A stretch of 28,946 nt of DNA. Source: Burkholderiaceae bacterium (GTDB lineage: Bacteria; Pseudomonadota; Gammaproteobacteria; Burkholderiales; Burkholderiaceae_D). The first letter of the stretch is position 1; the number at the start of each line of letters is the position of its first letter. The position numbers and the translations under genes are program-made. Shown one piece after another: positions 272 through 28,946 of the stretch. Location: the NCBI GenBank assembly GCA_034933385.1, contig JAYFNP010000095.1, forward strand, positions 1-28,946, written 5' to 3'. Below the pieces are notes generated by a model. The model saw only the letters and a list, made by a program, of their open reading frames with translations. It made no database searches and had not been told where the DNA came from.

Positions 272-348
272 GGGGTATGTATGAAAACTCATAAATTTAT
301 ACAATACGATTTTATATATTTATACTATACACATACCTAGTATATTTT
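272..348 (+). repeat. Conserved ~75-bp intergenic element, copy D (degenerate)
   Basis: GGGGTATG-N4-AAAA ... ACTATAC-N9-GTATATTTT. The right arm is at offset +67 (others +64/+65) and the central GCCAGAT/GCGG blocks are replaced by AT-rich sequence. Confidence 0.6.
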
Positions 349-6300: not shown

Positions 6301-6308
6301 CTCGGGAT

Positions 6309-6382
6309 TCCGAGGAGCGTTGCGACACGTCATCGATGACGTTGCCAGGCTCGGATTTGTTTTTTTATGCAACGGCGCTCAC
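6309..6382 (+). ncRNA. SAH riboswitch aptamer
   Basis: tccGAGGAGCGTTGCGAC...P2 palindrome ACGTCATCGATGACGT...CCAGGCTCGGA...CAACGGCGCTCAC matches the SAH riboswitch consensus (P1 plus GAGCG/CGCTC pseudoknot), directly upstream of ahcY. Confidence 0.92.
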
Positions 6383-6420
6383 GTAACTTTTTTCAGATTG
6401 ACAACGAAAGGAGAAGCGTG

Positions 6421-8224: not shown

Positions 8225-9070
8225 ATGGCTCAACCTTACTTCAGCATTGAATTTTTTCCGCCCAAGACGCTTGAGGGCGTGGCAAGCCTGCGGGCCGAAC
8301 GCAACTTGCTGGCGGCGCAAGGGGCAAAATATTATTCGGTCACGCTGGGTGCGGGCGGCTCTGCTCGCTATGGCAACAGCGATACCGTCACGGAAATCCA
8401 CAACGAGGGCCGCGAAGCCGCACCGCACTTGCTGTGCATCGGTTCGCAACGCGAAGCCATTCTGACGCGACTCAAGGAATATCAGGCGCAGGGCATTCGG
8501 CATCTGGTCGCGCTGCGTGGTGATTTGCCGGCGGGCGAGGAACGTGCGCGCGGCGAGTTCCATTACGCGAACGAGCTGGTCGAATTCATCCGCAAGGAAA
8601 CTGGCGACTGGTTCAAGATCGACATTGCCGCCTATCCGGAAATGCATCCGCAGGCGCCCTCGCCGCAAGTCGACCTGAAAAATTTCGTGCGCAAGGCCAA
8701 GGCTGGCGCCGATACCGCGATCACGCAATATTTTTACAACGCGGATGCATATTTCCGCTTCGTCGACAATGCGCGCAAAGCCGGCGTGACCATTCCGATC
8801 GTGCCCGGCATCATGCCAATCACGAATTACATACAGCTGGCCGGCTTTTCCGAGAAGGTCGGTGCGGAAATTCCGCGCTGGTTGCGCCTGAAGCTGGAAA
8901 GTTATGGCGACGATCTCGACTCGATCCGGGATTTTGGGCTGGATGTGGTCACCGAATTATGCGAGCGTTTGCAGGCCGGTGGCGCGCCCGGCTTCCATTT
9001 TTACAGCCTGAACCGCGCCAGTTCGGTTGTTGCAATATGGCAACGTCTTTCCCAGAGGGCGCCGAAATAA
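8225..9070 (+). CDS. metF: 5,10-methylenetetrahydrofolate reductase
   Basis: FSIEFFPPKT, ALRGD, AAYPEMHPQA, AITQYFYN, PGIMPITN and PGFHFYSLN motifs. Confidence 0.93.
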   Translation: MAQPYFSIEFFPPKTLEGVASLRAERNLLAAQGAKYYSVTLGAGGSARYGNSDTVTEIHNEGREAAPHLLCIGSQREAILTRLKEYQAQGIRHLVALRGDLPAGEERARGEFHYANELVEFIRKETGDWFKIDIAAYPEMHPQAPSPQVDLKNFVRKAKAGADTAITQYFYNADAYFRFVDNARKAGVTIPIVPGIMPITNYIQLAGFSEKVGAEIPRWLRLKLESYGDDLDSIRDFGLDVVTELCERLQAGGAPGFHFYSLNRASSVVAIWQRLSQRAPK

Positions 9071-9075
9071 TTCTA

Positions 9076-9149
9076 GGGTATAAGGAAAAATCAGCAAGTA
9101 TGGCCAGATAAAAAGCGGTGTGTAAAATATACTGCCTATAGTATATTTT
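9076..9149 (+). repeat. Conserved ~75-bp intergenic element, copy A
   Basis: GGGTATA at 9076, GCCAGAT at 9103 (+27), GCGG at 9115 (+39), perfect AAAATATAC-TGCCTATA-GTATATTTT at 9124-9149 (right arm +65). Confidence 0.88.
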
Positions 9150-9287
9150 GGCGGTGTCCGGCGCCGTCATCGGAACCGAGCCGCTTTGACGCGCTCCAGA
9201 CACAAAGCAGGGCTTTTCTGCCAGAATGCAGACGCAGATGTCGAATCGTCAATTTCACGGCAAAAAAATTTCTAGAACGGGTTTGAC

Positions 9288-11771
9288 ATGCACCGCCATT
9301 CCAGCCATGACTGGTTAAACCAACAGATTAACCCGACTCGCATCATGCTGGCGTATGCGGTTTTTGCTGCGTTGTGGATTATCGCGTCCGGCGCTTTTCT
9401 GACGTTTACCATCCAGGATCAATATCTTCAGGCCTGGATTGAAATCGGCAAGGGGCTGTTGTTTGTCGTGGTCACCAGCGTGCTGCTGAATCGGGTACTG
9501 ACCTGGCATCAGACACGCATCAAGCGCCTGACGCATCTGTATGCCGCATTAAGCCAGTGCAACCAGGCGATTGTGCATTGCGTCAGCGAACAAGAGCTTT
9601 TCCCCAAAATATGTCAAGCGGCCGTTTCCCACGATGGCATAAGAATGGCGTGGATTGGGATGGTCGATCAGGCCAGCGGCCAGGTTCGCCCAGCCGCTTC
9701 GTGTGGCCAGGGAGAGGAATACCTGCGCGAAGTCCGGATCACCACCAATCTGGCTGAACCCTGGGGCCGCGGGCCGGTTGGCACGGCGGTCAATGAAAAC
9801 CGGCCGGTATGGTGCCAGGATTTCAAAAGCGAACCGATGCTGACGCCGTGGCACGAGCAAGGACGGCAGTATGGTTTTGGCGCGAGTGCGGTTTTGCCGC
9901 TGCACAGGGGCGGCCTGCCGGTCGGCGTATTCTGTCTCTATGCCGGCAGGACGCATGCATTCGATTCGACGGCGCATCATTTGCTGACGGAAATGGCGCA
10001 AGACATCAGCTTTGCGCTGGACCGGTTTGAACAGGAAGAAGCGCACAAACGGATCGAACAGCAGGCGCGCGGCACACAATTACTGATGCAGCATTTTCTG
10101 GACAACATGCCGGGCGCGGTTTACATCAAAGACAGCGGATTGCGCGTGCTGCTGGCAAATCGCGGCTTTCAGACTTTGTTCGGCCTCGACCCGGCGGAGA
10201 TGATCGGCAAAACCAACCGCGAAATTTTTTCGGACGACCTTGGCGCGAAAATCAGCCAGGATGACATGCGCGTGCTGGCTTCCGGCAAGGCGGAAACCGT
10301 GTTCGAGGAATATCAGGGCAGGCGGTTCGAATCGACCAAGTTCGTGATCGAAGACGAGGCTGGCGGCCAGCTGCTGGGCGGCATCACGCTCGACGTCACC
10401 CAGCGCCACTTGCTGATGGCGCGTCAGCAAGCGCTACTCGAGCTGAATGAACTGGGCGCCCAGTTTCCGGAAAAGGATTTTCTGAACCATGGGCTGGGGA
10501 TCGCCCAGAAATTGACAGTCAGCGGGGTTTCTTTTTTACGTTTCATCAGTGATGAACCGAAAACCGATGAACTGGTTACCTGGTCGCAGAATGCCGGCGA
10601 AATTTGCGGCCTGGCTGATTATCCGATAACCGAGACAGGTGCTTGGGCGGAGTGTCTGCGGGAAAAAAGGACGGTCGTCATCAATAATTCTGGCGAGCAC
10701 CTGCAAACAAACGGATTGCCGGACAGCGGTACCTTGCCGGCGCGGCTGGTGCTGGTGCCAGTGATCGAAGAAGGTTCGGTGCGGATGATTCTGGGTGCCG
10801 GCCACAAGGAATTTGACTATGACGAGGCCGACGTCATCACTTTGCAATTGATCGGCAACGATTTGTGGCGGGTCGCGCGCCGCAACCGGGTCGAGGCGGC
10901 GATGCAGCAGCAATTGGCCGAGTTGAAAGGGCTGAACCAGCAGCTGGAAGAAACGCACAACCAGCTGGTGCAATCGGAAAAAATGGCGGCCATCGGGCAA
11001 CTGTCTGCCGGTATCGCGCATGAAATCAATAATCCGATCAGTTTCATCCAGTCCAATTTCAGCTCGCTGTCCGGCTACCTGGATGACTTGCTGGCGATCG
11101 ATGCCGCGTATTCGGAAATCGAGCGCAAACATGGCGCCCAGTTGCCGCAAGCATTCGAACAGGTGCAGCAGATAAAAAATTCGGTCGGACACGATTTCAT
11201 CGTTGGCGATTTGCGCCAGCTGATTGAGGAATCGCGCGAAGGAATGGAGCGGGTCAGAAAGATCGTTCAGGATCTGCGGAATTTCTCGCGGGTAGGCGAA
11301 ACCGGCTGGCAGTGGGCCGATTTGCATCAGGGCATCAACAGTACGATGAATATCGTGCGCAGTGTGATTCGGGAAGAGGTCGAGCTGGTGTGCGAGTTTG
11401 GCGAACTGCCGCTGGTGCGCTGTCTGCCGGCACAACTGAATCAGGTATTCCTGAACCTGCTGGTGAATGGCGCGCAAGCGATCGCCGGAGCGGGACGGGT
11501 GATGGTGCGCACCGGTTGCGAGGGCGACCGGGTCTGGGTCGAAATCGTTGACAGCGGCAGTGGCATTGCGCCGGAAAACATGAAACGCCTGTTCGAACCG
11601 TTTTTCACCACCAAGCCGGTCGGTCAGGGGACCGGACTCGGGCTATCGCTATCCTGGAGTATCGTCCAACGCCACGGCGGAAAAATCGAAGTTGATTCCA
11701 ATTCTGGCCAGGGAACGGTTTTCCGGGTTATCCTTCCGGTCGATTCGCAAACCGTTCCTGAAATTAACTAA
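9288..11771 (+). CDS. Sensor histidine kinase (2 TM - GAF - PAS - GAF-like - HisKA - HATPase_c)
   Basis: Two N-terminal TM helices; GAF (CQAAV..RMAWIG); PAS (FLDNMPGAVYIKD..ANRGF); H-box LVQSEKMAAIGQLSAGIAHEINNP; N box QVFLNLLVNGAQA; G1 DSGSGI; F box LFEPFFTTK; G2 GTGLGLS. Confidence 0.9.
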   Translation: MHRHSSHDWLNQQINPTRIMLAYAVFAALWIIASGAFLTFTIQDQYLQAWIEIGKGLLFVVVTSVLLNRVLTWHQTRIKRLTHLYAALSQCNQAIVHCVSEQELFPKICQAAVSHDGIRMAWIGMVDQASGQVRPAASCGQGEEYLREVRITTNLAEPWGRGPVGTAVNENRPVWCQDFKSEPMLTPWHEQGRQYGFGASAVLPLHRGGLPVGVFCLYAGRTHAFDSTAHHLLTEMAQDISFALDRFEQEEAHKRIEQQARGTQLLMQHFLDNMPGAVYIKDSGLRVLLANRGFQTLFGLDPAEMIGKTNREIFSDDLGAKISQDDMRVLASGKAETVFEEYQGRRFESTKFVIEDEAGGQLLGGITLDVTQRHLLMARQQALLELNELGAQFPEKDFLNHGLGIAQKLTVSGVSFLRFISDEPKTDELVTWSQNAGEICGLADYPITETGAWAECLREKRTVVINNSGEHLQTNGLPDSGTLPARLVLVPVIEEGSVRMILGAGHKEFDYDEADVITLQLIGNDLWRVARRNRVEAAMQQQLAELKGLNQQLEETHNQLVQSEKMAAIGQLSAGIAHEINNPISFIQSNFSSLSGYLDDLLAIDAAYSEIERKHGAQLPQAFEQVQQIKNSVGHDFIVGDLRQLIEESREGMERVRKIVQDLRNFSRVGETGWQWADLHQGINSTMNIVRSVIREEVELVCEFGELPLVRCLPAQLNQVFLNLLVNGAQAIAGAGRVMVRTGCEGDRVWVEIVDSGSGIAPENMKRLFEPFFTTKPVGQGTGLGLSLSWSIVQRHGGKIEVDSNSGQGTVFRVILPVDSQTVPEIN

Positions 11772-11792
11772 GCCAGTACATCAGCGACCCAG

Positions 11793-14267
11793 ATGAAGAC
11801 CCCCCACGACCGTTTCTCCATTCTCGACAAACGGGCTTTTGTGCTGCTGTCGCTCGACCTGGAATTCAAGATTTGCGCGATCAGTTTCGCCGGACTGCAC
11901 TGCCTCGGTTATGAAACGCAGCAACAGCTGCTTGGCCAGCCGCTGCAGGCGCTGGTTCCGAACGACCACTGGGACAAGGCCAGACTGGAAACGGCGGTTG
12001 AGCGTCTGAAACGGGATCGCGAACCGGCGTTGCTGGAATTCGATCTGTTGCATCGCAATGGCCAGCGCTTGCCGATGAGCTGGTGCCTCGACAGTCCTGC
12101 CGATCAAGATGATCCGTCATCGCCGTTGTTGCTGTTCGGCTTCGATACCACGACGCTCCGGCATAGCCAGCAAGCAGTCGCGCTGTTTCAAAGCGTGGCC
12201 GAGAATTACAGCGGCAGCATCCTGATTACCGACGCGCAGTCGCGCATTTTGTATGCGAATCCGGCGGCGCAGCGCATCATGGGCTATTCATACGAAGAAT
12301 TGTTTGGCCAGAAGTCGTCGCAGTTCCGGTCGGGCGAGACGCCGGATACGGGTTACCGGCAACTGACGGAAGCGATCAAGAACCGCGAAATATGGAAAGG
12401 TGAATTCATCAACCGCCGCAAGGATGGCGAACTGTACGTCGAGAGCAAGACAATTGCACCCATCAACGGGCCGAGCGGCGAAGTGGAATACTATTTTTCG
12501 ATTGGCGAAGACATTTCGCAGCGGCAGGAATACGAACAAAAGATCGAACGGCTGCTGATGTACGATCAACAGACTGGCTTGCCGAACCGCACTGCGTTCA
12601 TGCGCGAACTGGCGGCTGCGATGGAATCGGCCAGTTTGGCCGGTCAAGGATTGGCCGTGCTGCATGTGGACTTCGACGACTTCAAAAAAACCAATACCGC
12701 TTTTGGCAATGACGCGTCCGATCAGGTGCTGGCGGAAACGGCGGTGCGCATCAAGGAAATCCTGCGGGAAACCGATGTGGCGGCGCGCATCGCCGGCGAT
12801 GAATTTGCGGTGCTGCTCGGTTCGCGCCAGACTGGTGTCGAGGCCGACAGCTTGAACATTGCGGCGCGCCTGCTGGCGGCCATCCGCAGGCCCTATACCT
12901 TCACCGACCATAGCATTTCAATCACCGCTTCGATCGGGATCGCTTCCTTCCCGGAGTGTGGCGACAGCGCCCAGGATTTGATGACCAACGCGATGAGCGC
13001 GACGCTGCGGGCAAAACGCGGCGGCGGCAACGATTTGCGTCAGTTCGAGACAACGATGGCTGAGGATGAAAACGGGCGGCGCGAATTGCTGCAAGCCATC
13101 GAGCACGGCGAAATGGTGTTGCATTTCCAGCCGCAAGTCAGCCTGTTTTCTGGCAGCATCATTGGGGCCGAGGCGTTGATTCGCTGGAACCATCCGGTGC
13201 GCGGCCTGGTGTTTCCGGGCGAATTCATCCATATCGCTGAAGAAAGCAATTTCATCGTCGTGCTGGGCGAATGGGTGATCAACGAGGCGTGCCGCCAAAT
13301 ACGTGCCTGGCTGGATGCCGGTCTGCCGCCGGTCAAGGTGGCGGTCAATCTGGCTGCGCGCCACTTCCGCAAGACCAGCTTGCCGGCCTGCGTCGCTCAG
13401 GCGCTGGCGGCCTGGAAACTGGAGCCGCGTTTCCTCGAAATCGAGATCACCGAATACGCGCTGATGCAGGATATCGCCGCGACCATCCGCAATCTGGCGC
13501 AATTGAAGGAACTGGGGGTACGCATTTCGCTCGACGATTTCGGTACCGGCTATTCGTCGATGGCGTATCTGTCGCGTTTCCCGATCGATGTGGTCAAGAT
13601 CGACCAGTCGTTCATCAGCGACATTACCACCAATCCGGCCAATGCGGCGATCGCCCAGGCGACCATCGCGATGTCACACAAGCTTGGCAAGCTGGTGCTG
13701 GCGGAAGGCCTTGAAACGCTGGAACAGCTGACTTACCTGCGGCGTTCCGAGTGCGACGAAATGCAAGGCTATTATTTTTCCAAACCGGTGCCGGCCGACG
13801 AAATGGCCGCGATGCTGCAGCAGGACCGTCGCGCTTCGCTGGCGCTGCAAAGCGATCAACGGGTACGCGATACCATCTTGCTGGTCGACGATGAAGCCAG
13901 CATCCTGTCGGCGCTGAAGCGGACGTTGCGGCGTGAAGGCTACACCATCCTGACGGCGGAAAACGCCGCCGAGGGCTTCGCGCTGCTGGCCAAGCATCCG
14001 GTAAAGCTGATCATCAGCGACCAGCACATAAACGAAATGACCGGCACGCAATTTCTGTCGCAAGCCAGGATCATGTATCCGGAAACGGTGCGCATTGTGC
14101 TGTCCGGCTTTTCCGAAATTGCGACCGTGACCGATGCGATCAACAAGGGCGCGGCCTACCGCTTCCTGACCAAGCCGTGGAACGACGAGCAACTCAAGGA
14201 CGAAATCCGCGGCGCGTTGCGCCATTGGCGCGAGCTGTATGCCAGAGATGGTGACAACGCCCAGTAA
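11793..14267 (+). CDS. PAS-PAS-GGDEF(AGDEF)-EAL-REC c-di-GMP phosphodiesterase-type protein
   Basis: Two PAS domains (second ending in WKGEFINRRKDGELY); RETD I-site then AGDEF; EAL, EITE, DDFGTGYSS, KID, EGLE, QGY; C-terminal receiver (LVDDE, IISD, LSG, KPW). Confidence 0.9.
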   Translation: MKTPHDRFSILDKRAFVLLSLDLEFKICAISFAGLHCLGYETQQQLLGQPLQALVPNDHWDKARLETAVERLKRDREPALLEFDLLHRNGQRLPMSWCLDSPADQDDPSSPLLLFGFDTTTLRHSQQAVALFQSVAENYSGSILITDAQSRILYANPAAQRIMGYSYEELFGQKSSQFRSGETPDTGYRQLTEAIKNREIWKGEFINRRKDGELYVESKTIAPINGPSGEVEYYFSIGEDISQRQEYEQKIERLLMYDQQTGLPNRTAFMRELAAAMESASLAGQGLAVLHVDFDDFKKTNTAFGNDASDQVLAETAVRIKEILRETDVAARIAGDEFAVLLGSRQTGVEADSLNIAARLLAAIRRPYTFTDHSISITASIGIASFPECGDSAQDLMTNAMSATLRAKRGGGNDLRQFETTMAEDENGRRELLQAIEHGEMVLHFQPQVSLFSGSIIGAEALIRWNHPVRGLVFPGEFIHIAEESNFIVVLGEWVINEACRQIRAWLDAGLPPVKVAVNLAARHFRKTSLPACVAQALAAWKLEPRFLEIEITEYALMQDIAATIRNLAQLKELGVRISLDDFGTGYSSMAYLSRFPIDVVKIDQSFISDITTNPANAAIAQATIAMSHKLGKLVLAEGLETLEQLTYLRRSECDEMQGYYFSKPVPADEMAAMLQQDRRASLALQSDQRVRDTILLVDDEASILSALKRTLRREGYTILTAENAAEGFALLAKHPVKLIISDQHINEMTGTQFLSQARIMYPETVRIVLSGFSEIATVTDAINKGAAYRFLTKPWNDEQLKDEIRGALRHWRELYARDGDNAQ

Positions 14268-14281
14268 TGACGGATTTCTCC

Positions 14282-14355
14282 GGGGTATAGTTCAAAATAT
14301 ACCTTTACCGCCAGATGTTCTGCGGCAGTTTCAATATACATCCACCAGTATATTT
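14282..14355 (+). repeat. Conserved ~75-bp intergenic element, copy B
   Basis: GGGTATA at 14283, GCCAGAT at 14310 (+27), GCGG at 14322 (+39), AATATAC-ATCCACCA-GTATATT with right arm at 14348 (+65). Has an extra exact AAAATATAC half-site at 14294-14302. Confidence 0.88.
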
Positions 14356-14371
14356 CCCAGTGCGAAAACGG

Positions 14372-14929
14372 TCACAGCCGTTCGGTGACGATGTGATCGA
14401 GCGCGATGTCGCGCGGGCCGGGTGTGAATTCGATTGCCTGACAGGAGTATGCGATACCCAGCGTCAGCGGTCGCGGCGATACCGCCAGCGTGCGGTCGTA
14501 AAATCCGCCGCCATAGCCGAGGCGGAAATTCCCGGCATTGAACCCGACGCACGGCACTAGCAGCGCTTGCGGCAAGGCAACCAATCGTTTTTCGGCTGGC
14601 GTCGGCACGCCGAACGCATCGTTGATCATCGAATCGCCTGGTTTCCAGGCAGCGAATTCCAGCGGGCGGGCCTTGCCGGCGACCACCGGCAGTGCCAGCG
14701 CGATGCCAGCCGCTGCCAGACGTTCGTACAGAGCCAGCAAATCCGGCTCGCCGCGGATCGGCCAGAATACGCCGAGCGTTTCGACCGGCTGCGCCTGCAA
14801 GCGCTGCTCGAGTTGTGCTGCAATCGCGGCATCCCATTCGCTTTTCTGCGACGGGCCAATCGCATGCCGCGCGTTCAGCAGCATCCGCCGCAACGCGCTC
14901 TTTTCAATCATGCTTGGTGGTAAACTCAT
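14372..14929 (-). CDS. ygfA: 5-formyltetrahydrofolate cyclo-ligase
   Basis: KSALRR, FWPIRGEPDL, LVPCVGF, RLGYGGGFYDRTL and D..LDHIVTE motifs. Confidence 0.92.
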   Translation of the reverse strand: MSLPPSMIEKSALRRMLLNARHAIGPSQKSEWDAAIAAQLEQRLQAQPVETLGVFWPIRGEPDLLALYERLAAAGIALALPVVAGKARPLEFAAWKPGDSMINDAFGVPTPAEKRLVALPQALLVPCVGFNAGNFRLGYGGGFYDRTLAVSPRPLTLGIAYSCQAIEFTPGPRDIALDHIVTERL

Positions 14930-16899: not shown

Positions 16900-16974
16900 C
16901 AGAAATACACTGCACAGTATTTTTGCATGGCCGCAGAATGCGTGGCCAGGCAGCATATTTTCAGCATATACTCC
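16900..16974 (-). repeat. Conserved ~75-bp intergenic element, copy E
   Basis: Minus strand: GAGTATA from 16973, AAAA +12, GCCA +27, GCGG +39, AAAAATAC-TGTGCAGT-GTATTTCT with right arm at +65. Spacing is identical to copies A, B and C. Confidence 0.82.
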
Positions 16975-17005
16975 GTCAAATCTCCGAAAAACAGGAAGCT
17001 TGATC

Positions 17006-19299: not shown

Positions 19300-19980
19300 A
19301 TGACACGCATGGACGACAAGCCCAGACCGGACGACAAGCCCATCGTTTTCATCAAGGAATTGACCGAGCGCGACCGGCCGTACCTGCTGAACCACTTCAA
19401 GACGCTGGATGCGAACGACCGTTTCCTGCGTTTCGGCAGCGTAGTCACCGACGAGGCGATCGCGCGTTACGTCGATGGCATCGATTTCACCCAGGACACG
19501 ATGTTCGGCGTCTATGAAAGCACCAACAACATGGTCGGCGTCGGCCATCTGTCGATTGCCCGACCGGAATCGCTGCCGGTGCTGGAAGGCTGCGCCCGGC
19601 GGGAAAGCATCGCCGAGTTCGGCGTGTCGGTGCTGGCGGCGGCGCGGCGGATGAATGTCGGCACCCGGTTATTCGAGCGGGCGGTGGTGCATTGCCGCAA
19701 CAAGAATGTCGATACGATGTACATCCATTGTCTGGCGTCGAACAAGCCGATGCTGTGCATTGCGCACAAGGCCGGCATGGAAATCCACCGTGATCACGGC
19801 GAGGTGGATGGCTACCTGAAACTGCCCGATCCGAACCGCGCAACGCTGCTGCACGAGGCGGTCGAGGAACGGGCGGCAACGCTGAACTACGCATTGAATG
19901 GCAAGTTCAAGGTGTCGATCGACTGGTTCCGCAACCTGTTCCACGCGAAATTGAACAGCCATCCGGAAAATAAGGACTAA
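19300..19980 (+). CDS. GNAT family N-acetyltransferase
   Basis: DRFLRFG, AEFGVSVLAAARRMNVGTRL (acetyl-CoA motif A-like), and C...NKPM..IAHKAGM. Confidence 0.85.
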   Translation: MTRMDDKPRPDDKPIVFIKELTERDRPYLLNHFKTLDANDRFLRFGSVVTDEAIARYVDGIDFTQDTMFGVYESTNNMVGVGHLSIARPESLPVLEGCARRESIAEFGVSVLAAARRMNVGTRLFERAVVHCRNKNVDTMYIHCLASNKPMLCIAHKAGMEIHRDHGEVDGYLKLPDPNRATLLHEAVEERAATLNYALNGKFKVSIDWFRNLFHAKLNSHPENKD

Positions 19981-20052
19981 TAAATACCTCTAGGAGTATT
20001 TATGGCGGGCCAGGAAAAACGCGGCCCAATCCCGGTTTTCCCGCTATACCCC
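19980..20052 (-). repeat. Conserved ~75-bp intergenic element, copy F
   Basis: Minus strand: GGGGTATA from 20052, AAAA +12, GGCC +25..28, TAAATAC-TCCTAGAG-GTATTTA with right arm at +64 (one base shorter than the consensus). Confidence 0.75.
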
Positions 20053-20529
20053 GGCAATAATGCGGTGCGGCAATTGCAGGATCGCTTCGGCGTTGGACGA
20101 CGAAAAGCAGCGGTCAGCCGCTTCGCGGTACGGCAGCCAGACATGGTGCAGGTGTTCGCGCGGCGCCAGCACCACCGGCACCGTGCGCGGCACCAGCAGG
20201 CCGAACACATGTTCGGTATTGCGCACCACGCCCGGCGCGTAGCGGTGGCGCCAGGTCGGGTAGATTTCGTAACTGTTGGTCAGTTGCCAGTCGTGCAGGT
20301 TGGCCAGCGGAACTTCGCTGCCGGTCGACGCACCGCGGGCGACAATGCGGATGCCGGTTTCTTCCTGCACTTCACGCTTGGCCGTTTCCGGCAGCGGTTC
20401 ATCCAGGCTGTTTCTTGAGCCGGTGACCGATTGCCAGAAGCCGGGCTTGTCGGCACGCTCAATCAGCAGCACCTCCAGCTCGACGGTGTGGATCACTACC
20501 AGGACCGATTCGGGGATTTTGTAGGCCAT
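20044..20529 (-). CDS. nudB: Dihydroneopterin triphosphate diphosphatase (Nudix)
   Basis: YKIPESVLVVIHT, WQSVTGS, Nudix box AKREVQEETGI, YAPGV..NTEHVF, SSSNAEAI; follows aspS as usual. Confidence 0.93.
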   Translation of the reverse strand: MAYKIPESVLVVIHTVELEVLLIERADKPGFWQSVTGSRNSLDEPLPETAKREVQEETGIRIVARGASTGSEVPLANLHDWQLTNSYEIYPTWRHRYAPGVVRNTEHVFGLLVPRTVPVVLAPREHLHHVWLPYREAADRCFSSSNAEAILQLPHRIIAGV

Positions 20530-28827: not shown

Positions 28828-28853
28828 CGACCCTTGAAACTTCGTAAAATCAT

Positions 28854-28928
28854 GGGGTATATACTAAAAAATGTATCCATGGCCAGATATTCCGCGGCGA
28901 TTTTAAAATACATCCGCCAGTATATTTT
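28854..28928 (+). repeat. Conserved ~75-bp intergenic element, copy C
   Basis: GGGTATA at 28855, GCCAGAT at 28882 (+27), GCGG at 28894 (+39), AAAATAC-ATCCGCCA-GTATATTTT with right arm at 28920 (+65). Matches copy B at 41 of 49 positions over offsets 27-75, ungapped. Confidence 0.88.
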
Positions 28929-28946
28929 CCGGCCGGTAGGCCGTTG

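Follow-up and report, generated by a model that had tools for sequence, protein, structure and literature searches.

Two members of an abundant intergenic repeat family at the ends of a signalling operon between metF and ygfA in a Burkholderiaceae bacterium

Short repeats that stand behind bacterial genes are known from more than one kind of system. Integron cassettes form contiguous, co-oriented arrays beside intI, attI and Pc. The pdif modules are bounded by 28-bp XerC-6-XerD sites with 11-bp arms and a likeness to chromosomal dif, usually in alternating orientation, and are found on plasmids. Other repeats are scattered over the genome. The repetitive extragenic palindromes (REP) and bacterial interspersed mosaic elements (BIME) of Enterobacteria and Pseudomonas have been reviewed (PMC3184786); their link to RAYT genes (PMC2817692) and a role in the 3'-untranslated region (3'-UTR) (bioRxiv 10.64898/2026.03.23.713779) have been described. 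REP/BIME are thought to be bound by proteins or to act on mRNA 3' ends (PMC3184786; bioRxiv 10.64898/2026.03.23.713779). The BOX (pneumococcal), ERIC/IRU (enterobacterial) and Correia (Neisseria) elements are intergenic repeats of about 80-150 nt that lie near stop codons and have a patchy taxonomic spread; they are modular with a variable middle, and some copies supply the 3' ends of genes (PMC3184786).

In this study, we analyzed a 28,946-nt stretch of DNA (the window; GenBank contig JAYFNP010000095.1, here C95) from the metagenome-assembled genome (MAG) of a Burkholderiaceae bacterium, GCA_034933385.1. Within it, two directly repeated copies, A and B, of a short element enclose a two-gene signalling operon (the island) between metF and ygfA. 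The first-pass annotation of the window compared this arrangement with an att- or pdif-like cassette that could be excised by recombination of A with B. Our results indicate that A and B are very likely two ordinary members of an abundant repeat family, which mark the ends of two operons, and that the cassette look of the locus is coincidental. One copy stands behind the ahcY-metF unit and the other behind the kinase/EAL operon, and together they give the appearance of a bracket.

Abundance, placement and structure of the repeat family

The element was searched with an nhmmer profile iterated over the contigs of the window's own genome (G000: 1.91 Mb, 389 contigs, 84% complete, N50 5.8 kb). 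The search returned 212 extragenic copies, 105 on the plus and 107 on the minus strand. This corresponds to one copy per 9 kb and about 1% of the genome; five copies lie in the window (Table 1). The strict pattern GGGTATA-N44-A[AT]ATAC-N8-GTATAT is matched by 40 copies. The reference genome was G003, a complete congener used over all of its 2.25 Mb, in which nhmmer gave no match at E<=1 and which defines 951 syntenic gene junctions in G000. An element is present at 92 of the 905 G000/G003 junctions of unchanged size, and occupancy is 36% at convergent, 8-9% at tandem and 4.5% at divergent junctions. These 92 occupied core-core junctions differ from those of G003 by the element alone and contain no cargo.

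The distance from an element to a stop codon is about 30 nt or less, and no fixed register between the two was found. Their orientation with respect to replication shows no bias (103 leading, 107 lagging), and strand-specific insertion of the IS200/IS605 type was rejected on this ground. In tandem contexts, orientation is weakly related to transcription (52 versus 35). Neighbouring elements on the same contig form 45 pairs in G000; 26 pairs are co-oriented, and the distance is 6 kb or less in 18 of those. Given the abundance of the family, the bracketing arrangement of A and B is not beyond chance. Since copies are placed at 3' ends (in tandem behind metF, convergent behind the EAL gene) and their orientation is a coin flip, this arrangement is unremarkable.

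The placement of the family resembles that of REP/BIME. Both consist of hundreds of short extragenic copies in either orientation, favour 3' ends and convergent gaps, seldom stand in divergent promoter regions and stay in place from one relative to the next. The copy number and the preference for convergent over divergent junctions in G000 agree with this likeness. Unlike REP/BIME, the element has neither a G+C-rich palindrome kept by compensatory changes nor a GTAG/CTAC head. It is built from AT-rich blocks at fixed spacing over 86 nt, and it has no RAYT gene flanked by its copies.

The blocks follow one another in the order AAAT-N4-GGGGTATAT ... AAAAAT ... GGCCAGATATTCTGCGGC ... TTTAAAAATAC-N8-GTATATTTT. 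By information content, the element begins with AAAT-N4-GGGGTATAT and ends with CAGTATATTTT. The element is present as first described but is somewhat longer, about 86 nt in total, because a conserved AAAT block sits about 10 nt upstream of GGGGTATA. The segments between the conserved blocks are random, and the N8 spacers are essentially random as well. The core is AA[AT]ATAC-N8-GTATAT[T], and its palindrome is imperfect in most copies (AAAATAC versus GTATATT). A structure of RNA or single-stranded DNA was considered as the conserved feature and rejected. No Watson-Crick covariation was observed in 202 aligned copies, in which the top mutual information was 0.25 and not of the Watson-Crick type, and the mean z-score of the minimum free energy was only about -1.4 on either strand. 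Rfam scans at the gathering threshold and at a permissive one gave no match to the element.

The element shares the length, the intergenic position near stop codons, the modular middle and the patchy spread of BOX, ERIC/IRU and Correia elements. It differs from them, and from miniature inverted-repeat transposable elements (MITEs), in that it lacks terminal inverted repeats and a recognisable target-site duplication. The ends AAAT..GGGGTATAT and CAGTATATTTT share only the TATA core as inverted sequence. No clear duplication was seen in filled-versus-empty alignments of G000 with the related genome G006, in which the flanks align poorly. The copies are far more diverged (58% mean identity) than those of typical MITE bursts. 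The element is not known to share the consensus sequences of BOX, ERIC/IRU or Correia elements. A search of the literature turned up no repeat described from Oxalobacteraceae. The element family is an undescribed REP/MITE-like intergenic repeat.

Copies A and B and the metF-ygfA island in related genomes

Copies A and B stand where the first-pass annotation had placed them. The GGGTATA motif of copy A, at 9076, begins 5 nt past the metF stop codon (9068-9070), which is overlapped by the 5' AAAT block of the copy. The GGGTATA of copy B, at 14283, lies 15 nt past the stop codon of the EAL gene (14265-14267), or 14 nt if an extra G is counted, and the copy ends at 14355/6, 16 nt short of the end of the ygfA stop at 14372. 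Both are on the plus strand, 5207 bp apart from start to start, and enclose exactly the kinase gene and the PAS-GGDEF-EAL-REC gene (Pfam). Their palindromes, AATATAC-TGCCTATA-GTATATT at 9126-9147 and AATATAC-ATCCACCA-GTATATT at 14333-14354, have unequal N8 spacers, as had been noted. The AATATAC-N8-GTATATT core has three matches in the window versus none in 100 shuffles, and the likeness of A to B exceeds chance for random DNA. The identity of A and B over the model columns is 0.59, and the mean of random pairs in the family is 0.583 +/- 0.058. By this measure, the two copies have no special kinship inside the family.

In copy A, the 3' palindrome grows to a 12-bp stem that is followed by TTTT (window 9101-9149). 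It is possible that this stem and TTTT serve as the metF terminator. Copy A also contains a sigma-70-like match, TGGCCA-16-TAAAAT, directed at the kinase gene. A role of the element as an outward promoter was rejected, as it clashes with the placement of the family, in which downstream genes are convergent in 106 cases versus co-oriented in 72.

The region from metF through ygfA was compared with 30 relatives by BLAST, followed by inspection of the locus. The two genes are direct neighbours, 12-137 bp apart, in the congeners G001, G003 and G005 and in G009, G010, G012, G013 and G018 of other genera. Because metF adjoins ygfA in these eight relatives, the kinase and GGDEF-EAL pair is a lineage-specific insertion, and the earlier view that the flanking genes are neighbours and the island is accessory was correct. 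It had also been expected that the empty site would keep a single element. This was not the case: no element was found in the metF-ygfA gap of 96-137 bp in G001, G003 or G005 with nhmmer at E<=10.

The same two genes are present at the same site in G004 and G006 (protein identity 65-69%), and plus-strand elements flank them in both. On the right side of the G006 island, two element copies stand in tandem. In G004, an unknown 230-aa open reading frame (ORF) and an IS5-type DDE transposase of the insertion sequence (IS) class lie behind the right-hand element on contig C99 (L288:1111-2421), and the contig ends before ygfA and slt. Kinase orthologs at the same place have 65-67% identity in G004 and G006 and 47-57% in G002. 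It is in G002 that the expectation of an island always flanked by elements fails. The island of this genome (L042:1989-12591) comprises five genes, encoding a GAF-PAS kinase, CheR, a 4HB_MCP-HAMP-GAF hybrid kinase, a REC-kinase and a PAS-GGDEF-EAL-REC protein. On its left side, one divergent element stands behind metF (L042:1700-1800) on the minus strand and is inverted, and no element was found on the right side, where the EAL gene meets ygfA. The G002 genome contains a divergent subfamily of its own, GAGTATAGGCC..AAAT..GCGCCGGA..AAAATGC-N8-GAGTAT, with at least 40 copies (BLAST with a weak match), which was missed by both the G000-trained profile and the strict pattern. What G002 contributes to the argument is therefore the orientation of its left-hand copy and the lack of a copy on the right.

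Two genes of the G002 island, the first and the fourth, match the C-terminal half of the G000 kinase. Because of this match, the two-gene island may be the product of a deletion between homologous kinase cores. The tree of the flanking genes is (G001,((G000,(G004,G006)),(G002,(G003,G005)))). According to this tree, either a single gain of the island was followed by its loss in the G003/G005 lineage, or the island moved between lineages; both ways, no element was left at the empty site.

Of the 23 unchanged junctions with an element in G000, 20 (87%) have one in G006 too, the reverse comparison gives a like result, and orientation is equal in 16 of the 17 single-copy pairs. The neutral sites of the two genomes are saturated. 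Orthologous copies have an identity of 0.62 versus 0.57 for non-orthologous copies (p = 2e-4); the corresponding values are 0.37 versus 0.28 in low-information columns and 0.88 versus 0.85 in block columns. Shared occupancy and orientation indicate that the copies, including those of the island, come from the ancestor of the clade. The near-saturation outside the blocks points to constraint on the blocks, not to recent transposition or to homogenisation of A by B. Judged from these comparisons, the operon is a genuine and old insertion between metF and ygfA, and the island has been passed on vertically, together with both of its elements, from the shared ancestor of G000, G004 and G006 onward.

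Insertions, recombinases and competing explanations

Inserts specific to G000 with respect to G003 were counted from 700 bp up; 138 genes of G000 are absent from G003. Of the 34 inserts, 19 are free of elements at both boundaries and 14 carry an element on a single side. Two are bracketed, one on contig C250 and the metF island once its ygfA boundary is corrected; under a strict boundary rule the number is one. If the two boundaries were independent, about 1.9 bracketed inserts would be expected. Between G000 and G006, 215 junctions were scored and 17 indels were found, nine without an element and one with the arrangement element-cargo-element. In all, 3 of 51 indels are bracketed, and bracketing of insertions genome-wide matches the chance rate. 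As a separate observation, at one junction G000 has one element and a 1.7-kb insert (C358:566-2259) and G006 has two tandem elements (C16:25991-26378).

Several points weigh against the conclusion that A and B are ordinary family members in a coincidental arrangement. Between the GNAT and NUDIX genes, G006 carries an adhesin insert between two co-oriented minus-strand elements and G000 has a single element. The G000 copy resembles the NUDIX-side copy of G006 in the centre and the GNAT-side copy in the 3' block. Taken alone, the sequences at this junction would fit the pattern predicted by a cassette model. It is the sole clean element-cargo-element case among the 17 indels, and its GNAT-side copy in G006 is degenerate (23 bits). 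Indel junctions also carry elements about 3-4 times as often as stable ones (8 of 17 versus 12%), and elements are found at about 24-30% of the boundaries of G000-specific inserts versus 10%, a comparison in which the orientation class of the junction is not controlled. The enrichment at indel junctions therefore indicates some link between the elements and variable DNA. In addition, the gene calls were home-made (ORFs, a codon score and BLAST), the G000 assembly is fragmented, and the comparison with G006 covers 440 kb, or 18% of that genome. The present function proposed below for the element is an inference, and the analysis brought up neither a mobilising enzyme nor a binding protein for the family.

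The enrichment would be expected if the elements, or the permissive 3' ends that they mark, promoted or tolerated the entry of foreign DNA by illegitimate or homology-facilitated recombination or by IS targeting; the place of the island beside elements would then not be pure accident. In line with this, elements are frequent at both the G000/G006 indel junctions and the boundaries of G000-specific inserts, and the junction between cca and NUDIX is variable in four species. However, it also varies in G005, which has 2.5 kb extra at this junction and no elements. The G002 island is present without a bracket, and the indels without any element (9 of 17 and 19 of 34) do not follow from such a hot spot. 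The enrichment could also reflect a shared tolerance at convergent 3' ends. We consider it quite unlikely that the elements act as a hot spot.

It is also conceivable that a host or mobile-element protein recognises the family as its site, so that foreign genes enter preferentially at 3'-end junctions that carry an element. Surviving products with the arrangement element-cargo-element would then be the metF island, the insert on C250 and the adhesin insert of G006, and the single-sided cases would be decayed ones. Both the 3-4-fold excess of elements where junctions differ by an indel and the chimeric appearance of the GNAT|NUDIX copies in G006 are compatible with this explanation. We regard it as quite unlikely.

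The cassette hypothesis takes A and B for crossover sites of an att- or pdif-like kind: the kinase and EAL genes would have come in as a circle through site-specific recombination with an element, and recombination of A with B could still excise them. If true, it would represent a new integrase-less mechanism of gene capture, and the evidence is against it. The direct orientation of A and B around exactly one operon, the accessory nature of the island, the enrichment at indel junctions and the hint of chimerism at the GNAT|NUDIX junction agree with the hypothesis. The locus shares with attC and pdif a short imperfect palindrome behind a gene and direct repeats around cargo without a recombinase. 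Unlike integron cassettes, however, the five or six copies in the window do not share one strand, and core genes stand between them. Unlike both integron cassettes and pdif modules, most copies flank no cargo, and the family has no partner recombinase. The arms of the element are 7 bp and imperfectly complementary in most copies and its spacer is 8 nt, which sets it apart from pdif and the dif consensus. The imperfect palindromes and random N8 spacers are incompatible with homology-dependent strand exchange between copies. At least 92 elements stand at core-core junctions without cargo, an 8.5-kb insert of G006 at C111 lies beside one conserved element, and bracketed indels are no more frequent than by chance. 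Three species still have the whole bracket, whereas its two copies have diverged to the random level.

The search for a recombinase gave no support for such a cassette. The island had been described as lacking an integrase, and indeed no recombinase gene is present on the window contig C95; PF00589 matches in G000 are on six other contigs. The counts of tyrosine recombinases are similar in the element-free G003 and do not track the family, and no dedicated recombinase co-occurs with it. A RAYT/Y1 transposase was rejected as the mobiliser, since no element lies closer than 1.5 kb to the strong Y1 genes of G032, G033 and G043. The weak Y1_Tnp gene on C210 is not flanked by copies, and every congener has this gene, whether or not it carries the family. 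IS110 is absent. In contigs from four groundwater metagenomes of one study, no joint that skips from metF to ygfA and no circular joint was found, although contigs would miss rare variants; contigs of runs X1 and X2 span both island junctions. With element-free empty sites, an unbracketed island in G002 and an A-B identity at the random level, an excisable att- or pdif-like cassette is very improbable.

It is very improbable that the elements are a purely selfish, currently mobile MITE of which recent copies landed on both sides of the operon without a host function: the patchiness across species and genera, the subfamilies with conserved ends and different centres and the presence/absence differences between G000 and G006 (three each way) are in keeping with it, but the copies share only the blocks with variable columns at the random level, terminal inverted repeats and an evident target duplication are lacking, occupancy and orientation are kept across species with saturated neutral sites, no transposase is associated with the family (Y1 genes lie apart from the elements and IS110 is missing) and there is no replication-strand bias.

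Features of the window and meaning of the family

The features of the locus are listed in Table 1. Because its GGDEF motif is degenerate (AGDEF) and its EAL motif is intact in the translation, the PAS-GGDEF-EAL-REC protein is likely a cyclic di-GMP (c-di-GMP) phosphodiesterase controlled via the C-terminal receiver domain. An S-adenosylhomocysteine (SAH) riboswitch (RF01057, 58.7 bits) is located at 6306-6387 directly upstream of ahcY, and the gene order ahcY, small ORF, metF is kept in every relative examined. The element behind the NUDIX gene covers the last codons and the stop of this gene in both G000 and G006 (window 20044-20059; G006 C35 stitched 32361-32376), so that the repeat supplies the 3' end of the gene.

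Table 1. Genes and element copies at the metF-ygfA locus, further copies in the window and the adhesin insert of G006 (window positions unless a contig is given)
Feature	Position	Strand	Remarks
metF	8225..9070	+	left core flank, end of SAH-riboswitch-ahcY-metF unit; Pfam MTHFR 3.9e-81
Copy A	9066..9152	+	directly behind metF; nhmmer 9068-9152, E 2.4e-11
Sensor histidine kinase, GAF-PAS-HisKA-HATPase	9288..11771	+	first gene of the operon; Pfam
PAS-GGDEF-EAL-REC protein	11793..14267	+	Pfam, translation; start 21 nt past kinase stop
Copy B	14274..14356	+	between EAL-gene stop and convergent ygfA stop; nhmmer E 2.9e-16
ygfA, 5-formyltetrahydrofolate cyclo-ligase	14372..14929	-	right core flank, convergent with island; Pfam 5-FTHF_cyc-lig 7.6e-26
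Further copy	16900..16981	-	between slt and small gene upstream of cca; common to G006, absent from G003 and G005
Further copy	19978..20059	-	between GNAT and NUDIX, overlaps NUDIX 3' end
Further copy	28846..28933	+	top scorer of the window, nhmmer E 4.9e-19
Sixth copy, degenerate, AT-rich	272..348	+	from the first-pass annotation; under the nhmmer threshold used here; sequence inspected
Adhesin insert of G006, 5.7 kb	C35:31445-37372 (stitched 26445-32372)		one 1802-aa gene: DUF4347, He_PIG, cadherin, RTX, DUF4214

G000, G004 and G006 carry the family, G002 carries a variant of it, and it was not found in G001, G003 or G005. A search of 30 further genera from the same bacterial family gave strict copies with a different central module in four: 146 in G043, 37 in G033, 5 in G032 and 1 in G037. 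In G033 and G043, the framework is GGGTATAT..AAAA..TTTAAAAATAC-N8-AGTATAT with CCCGCACGTATTCATTGGC in the middle, an exchange of the centre between conserved ends. The hosts that have names are Burkholderiaceae/Oxalobacteraceae MAGs of soil and water origin, and there is one match in Herminiimonas sp. CN. This patchy distribution across genera and species suggests past horizontal spread of the family.

We propose that the elements initially dispersed in the manner of a non-autonomous mobile repeat, which would account for both the patchy distribution and the subfamilies with different central modules. At present they would be retained for their blocks, used most likely as a DNA site for a protein or as a motif of the 3'-UTR or termination region, as with REP/BIME. 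They would not act as recombination sites for the island.

The locus is a worked example of how little direct repeats around cargo mean before the genome-wide density of the repeat is known. The results document an undescribed and abundant repeat family in Burkholderiaceae/Oxalobacteraceae MAGs from groundwater and soil, and they date a two-component c-di-GMP module as an old insertion in a folate/methionine gene neighbourhood. The profile of the family is unusual: its blocks are conserved and its stems are not, positions are retained at the high rate seen between G000 and G006, and close congeners are without the family. This profile points to a binding factor.

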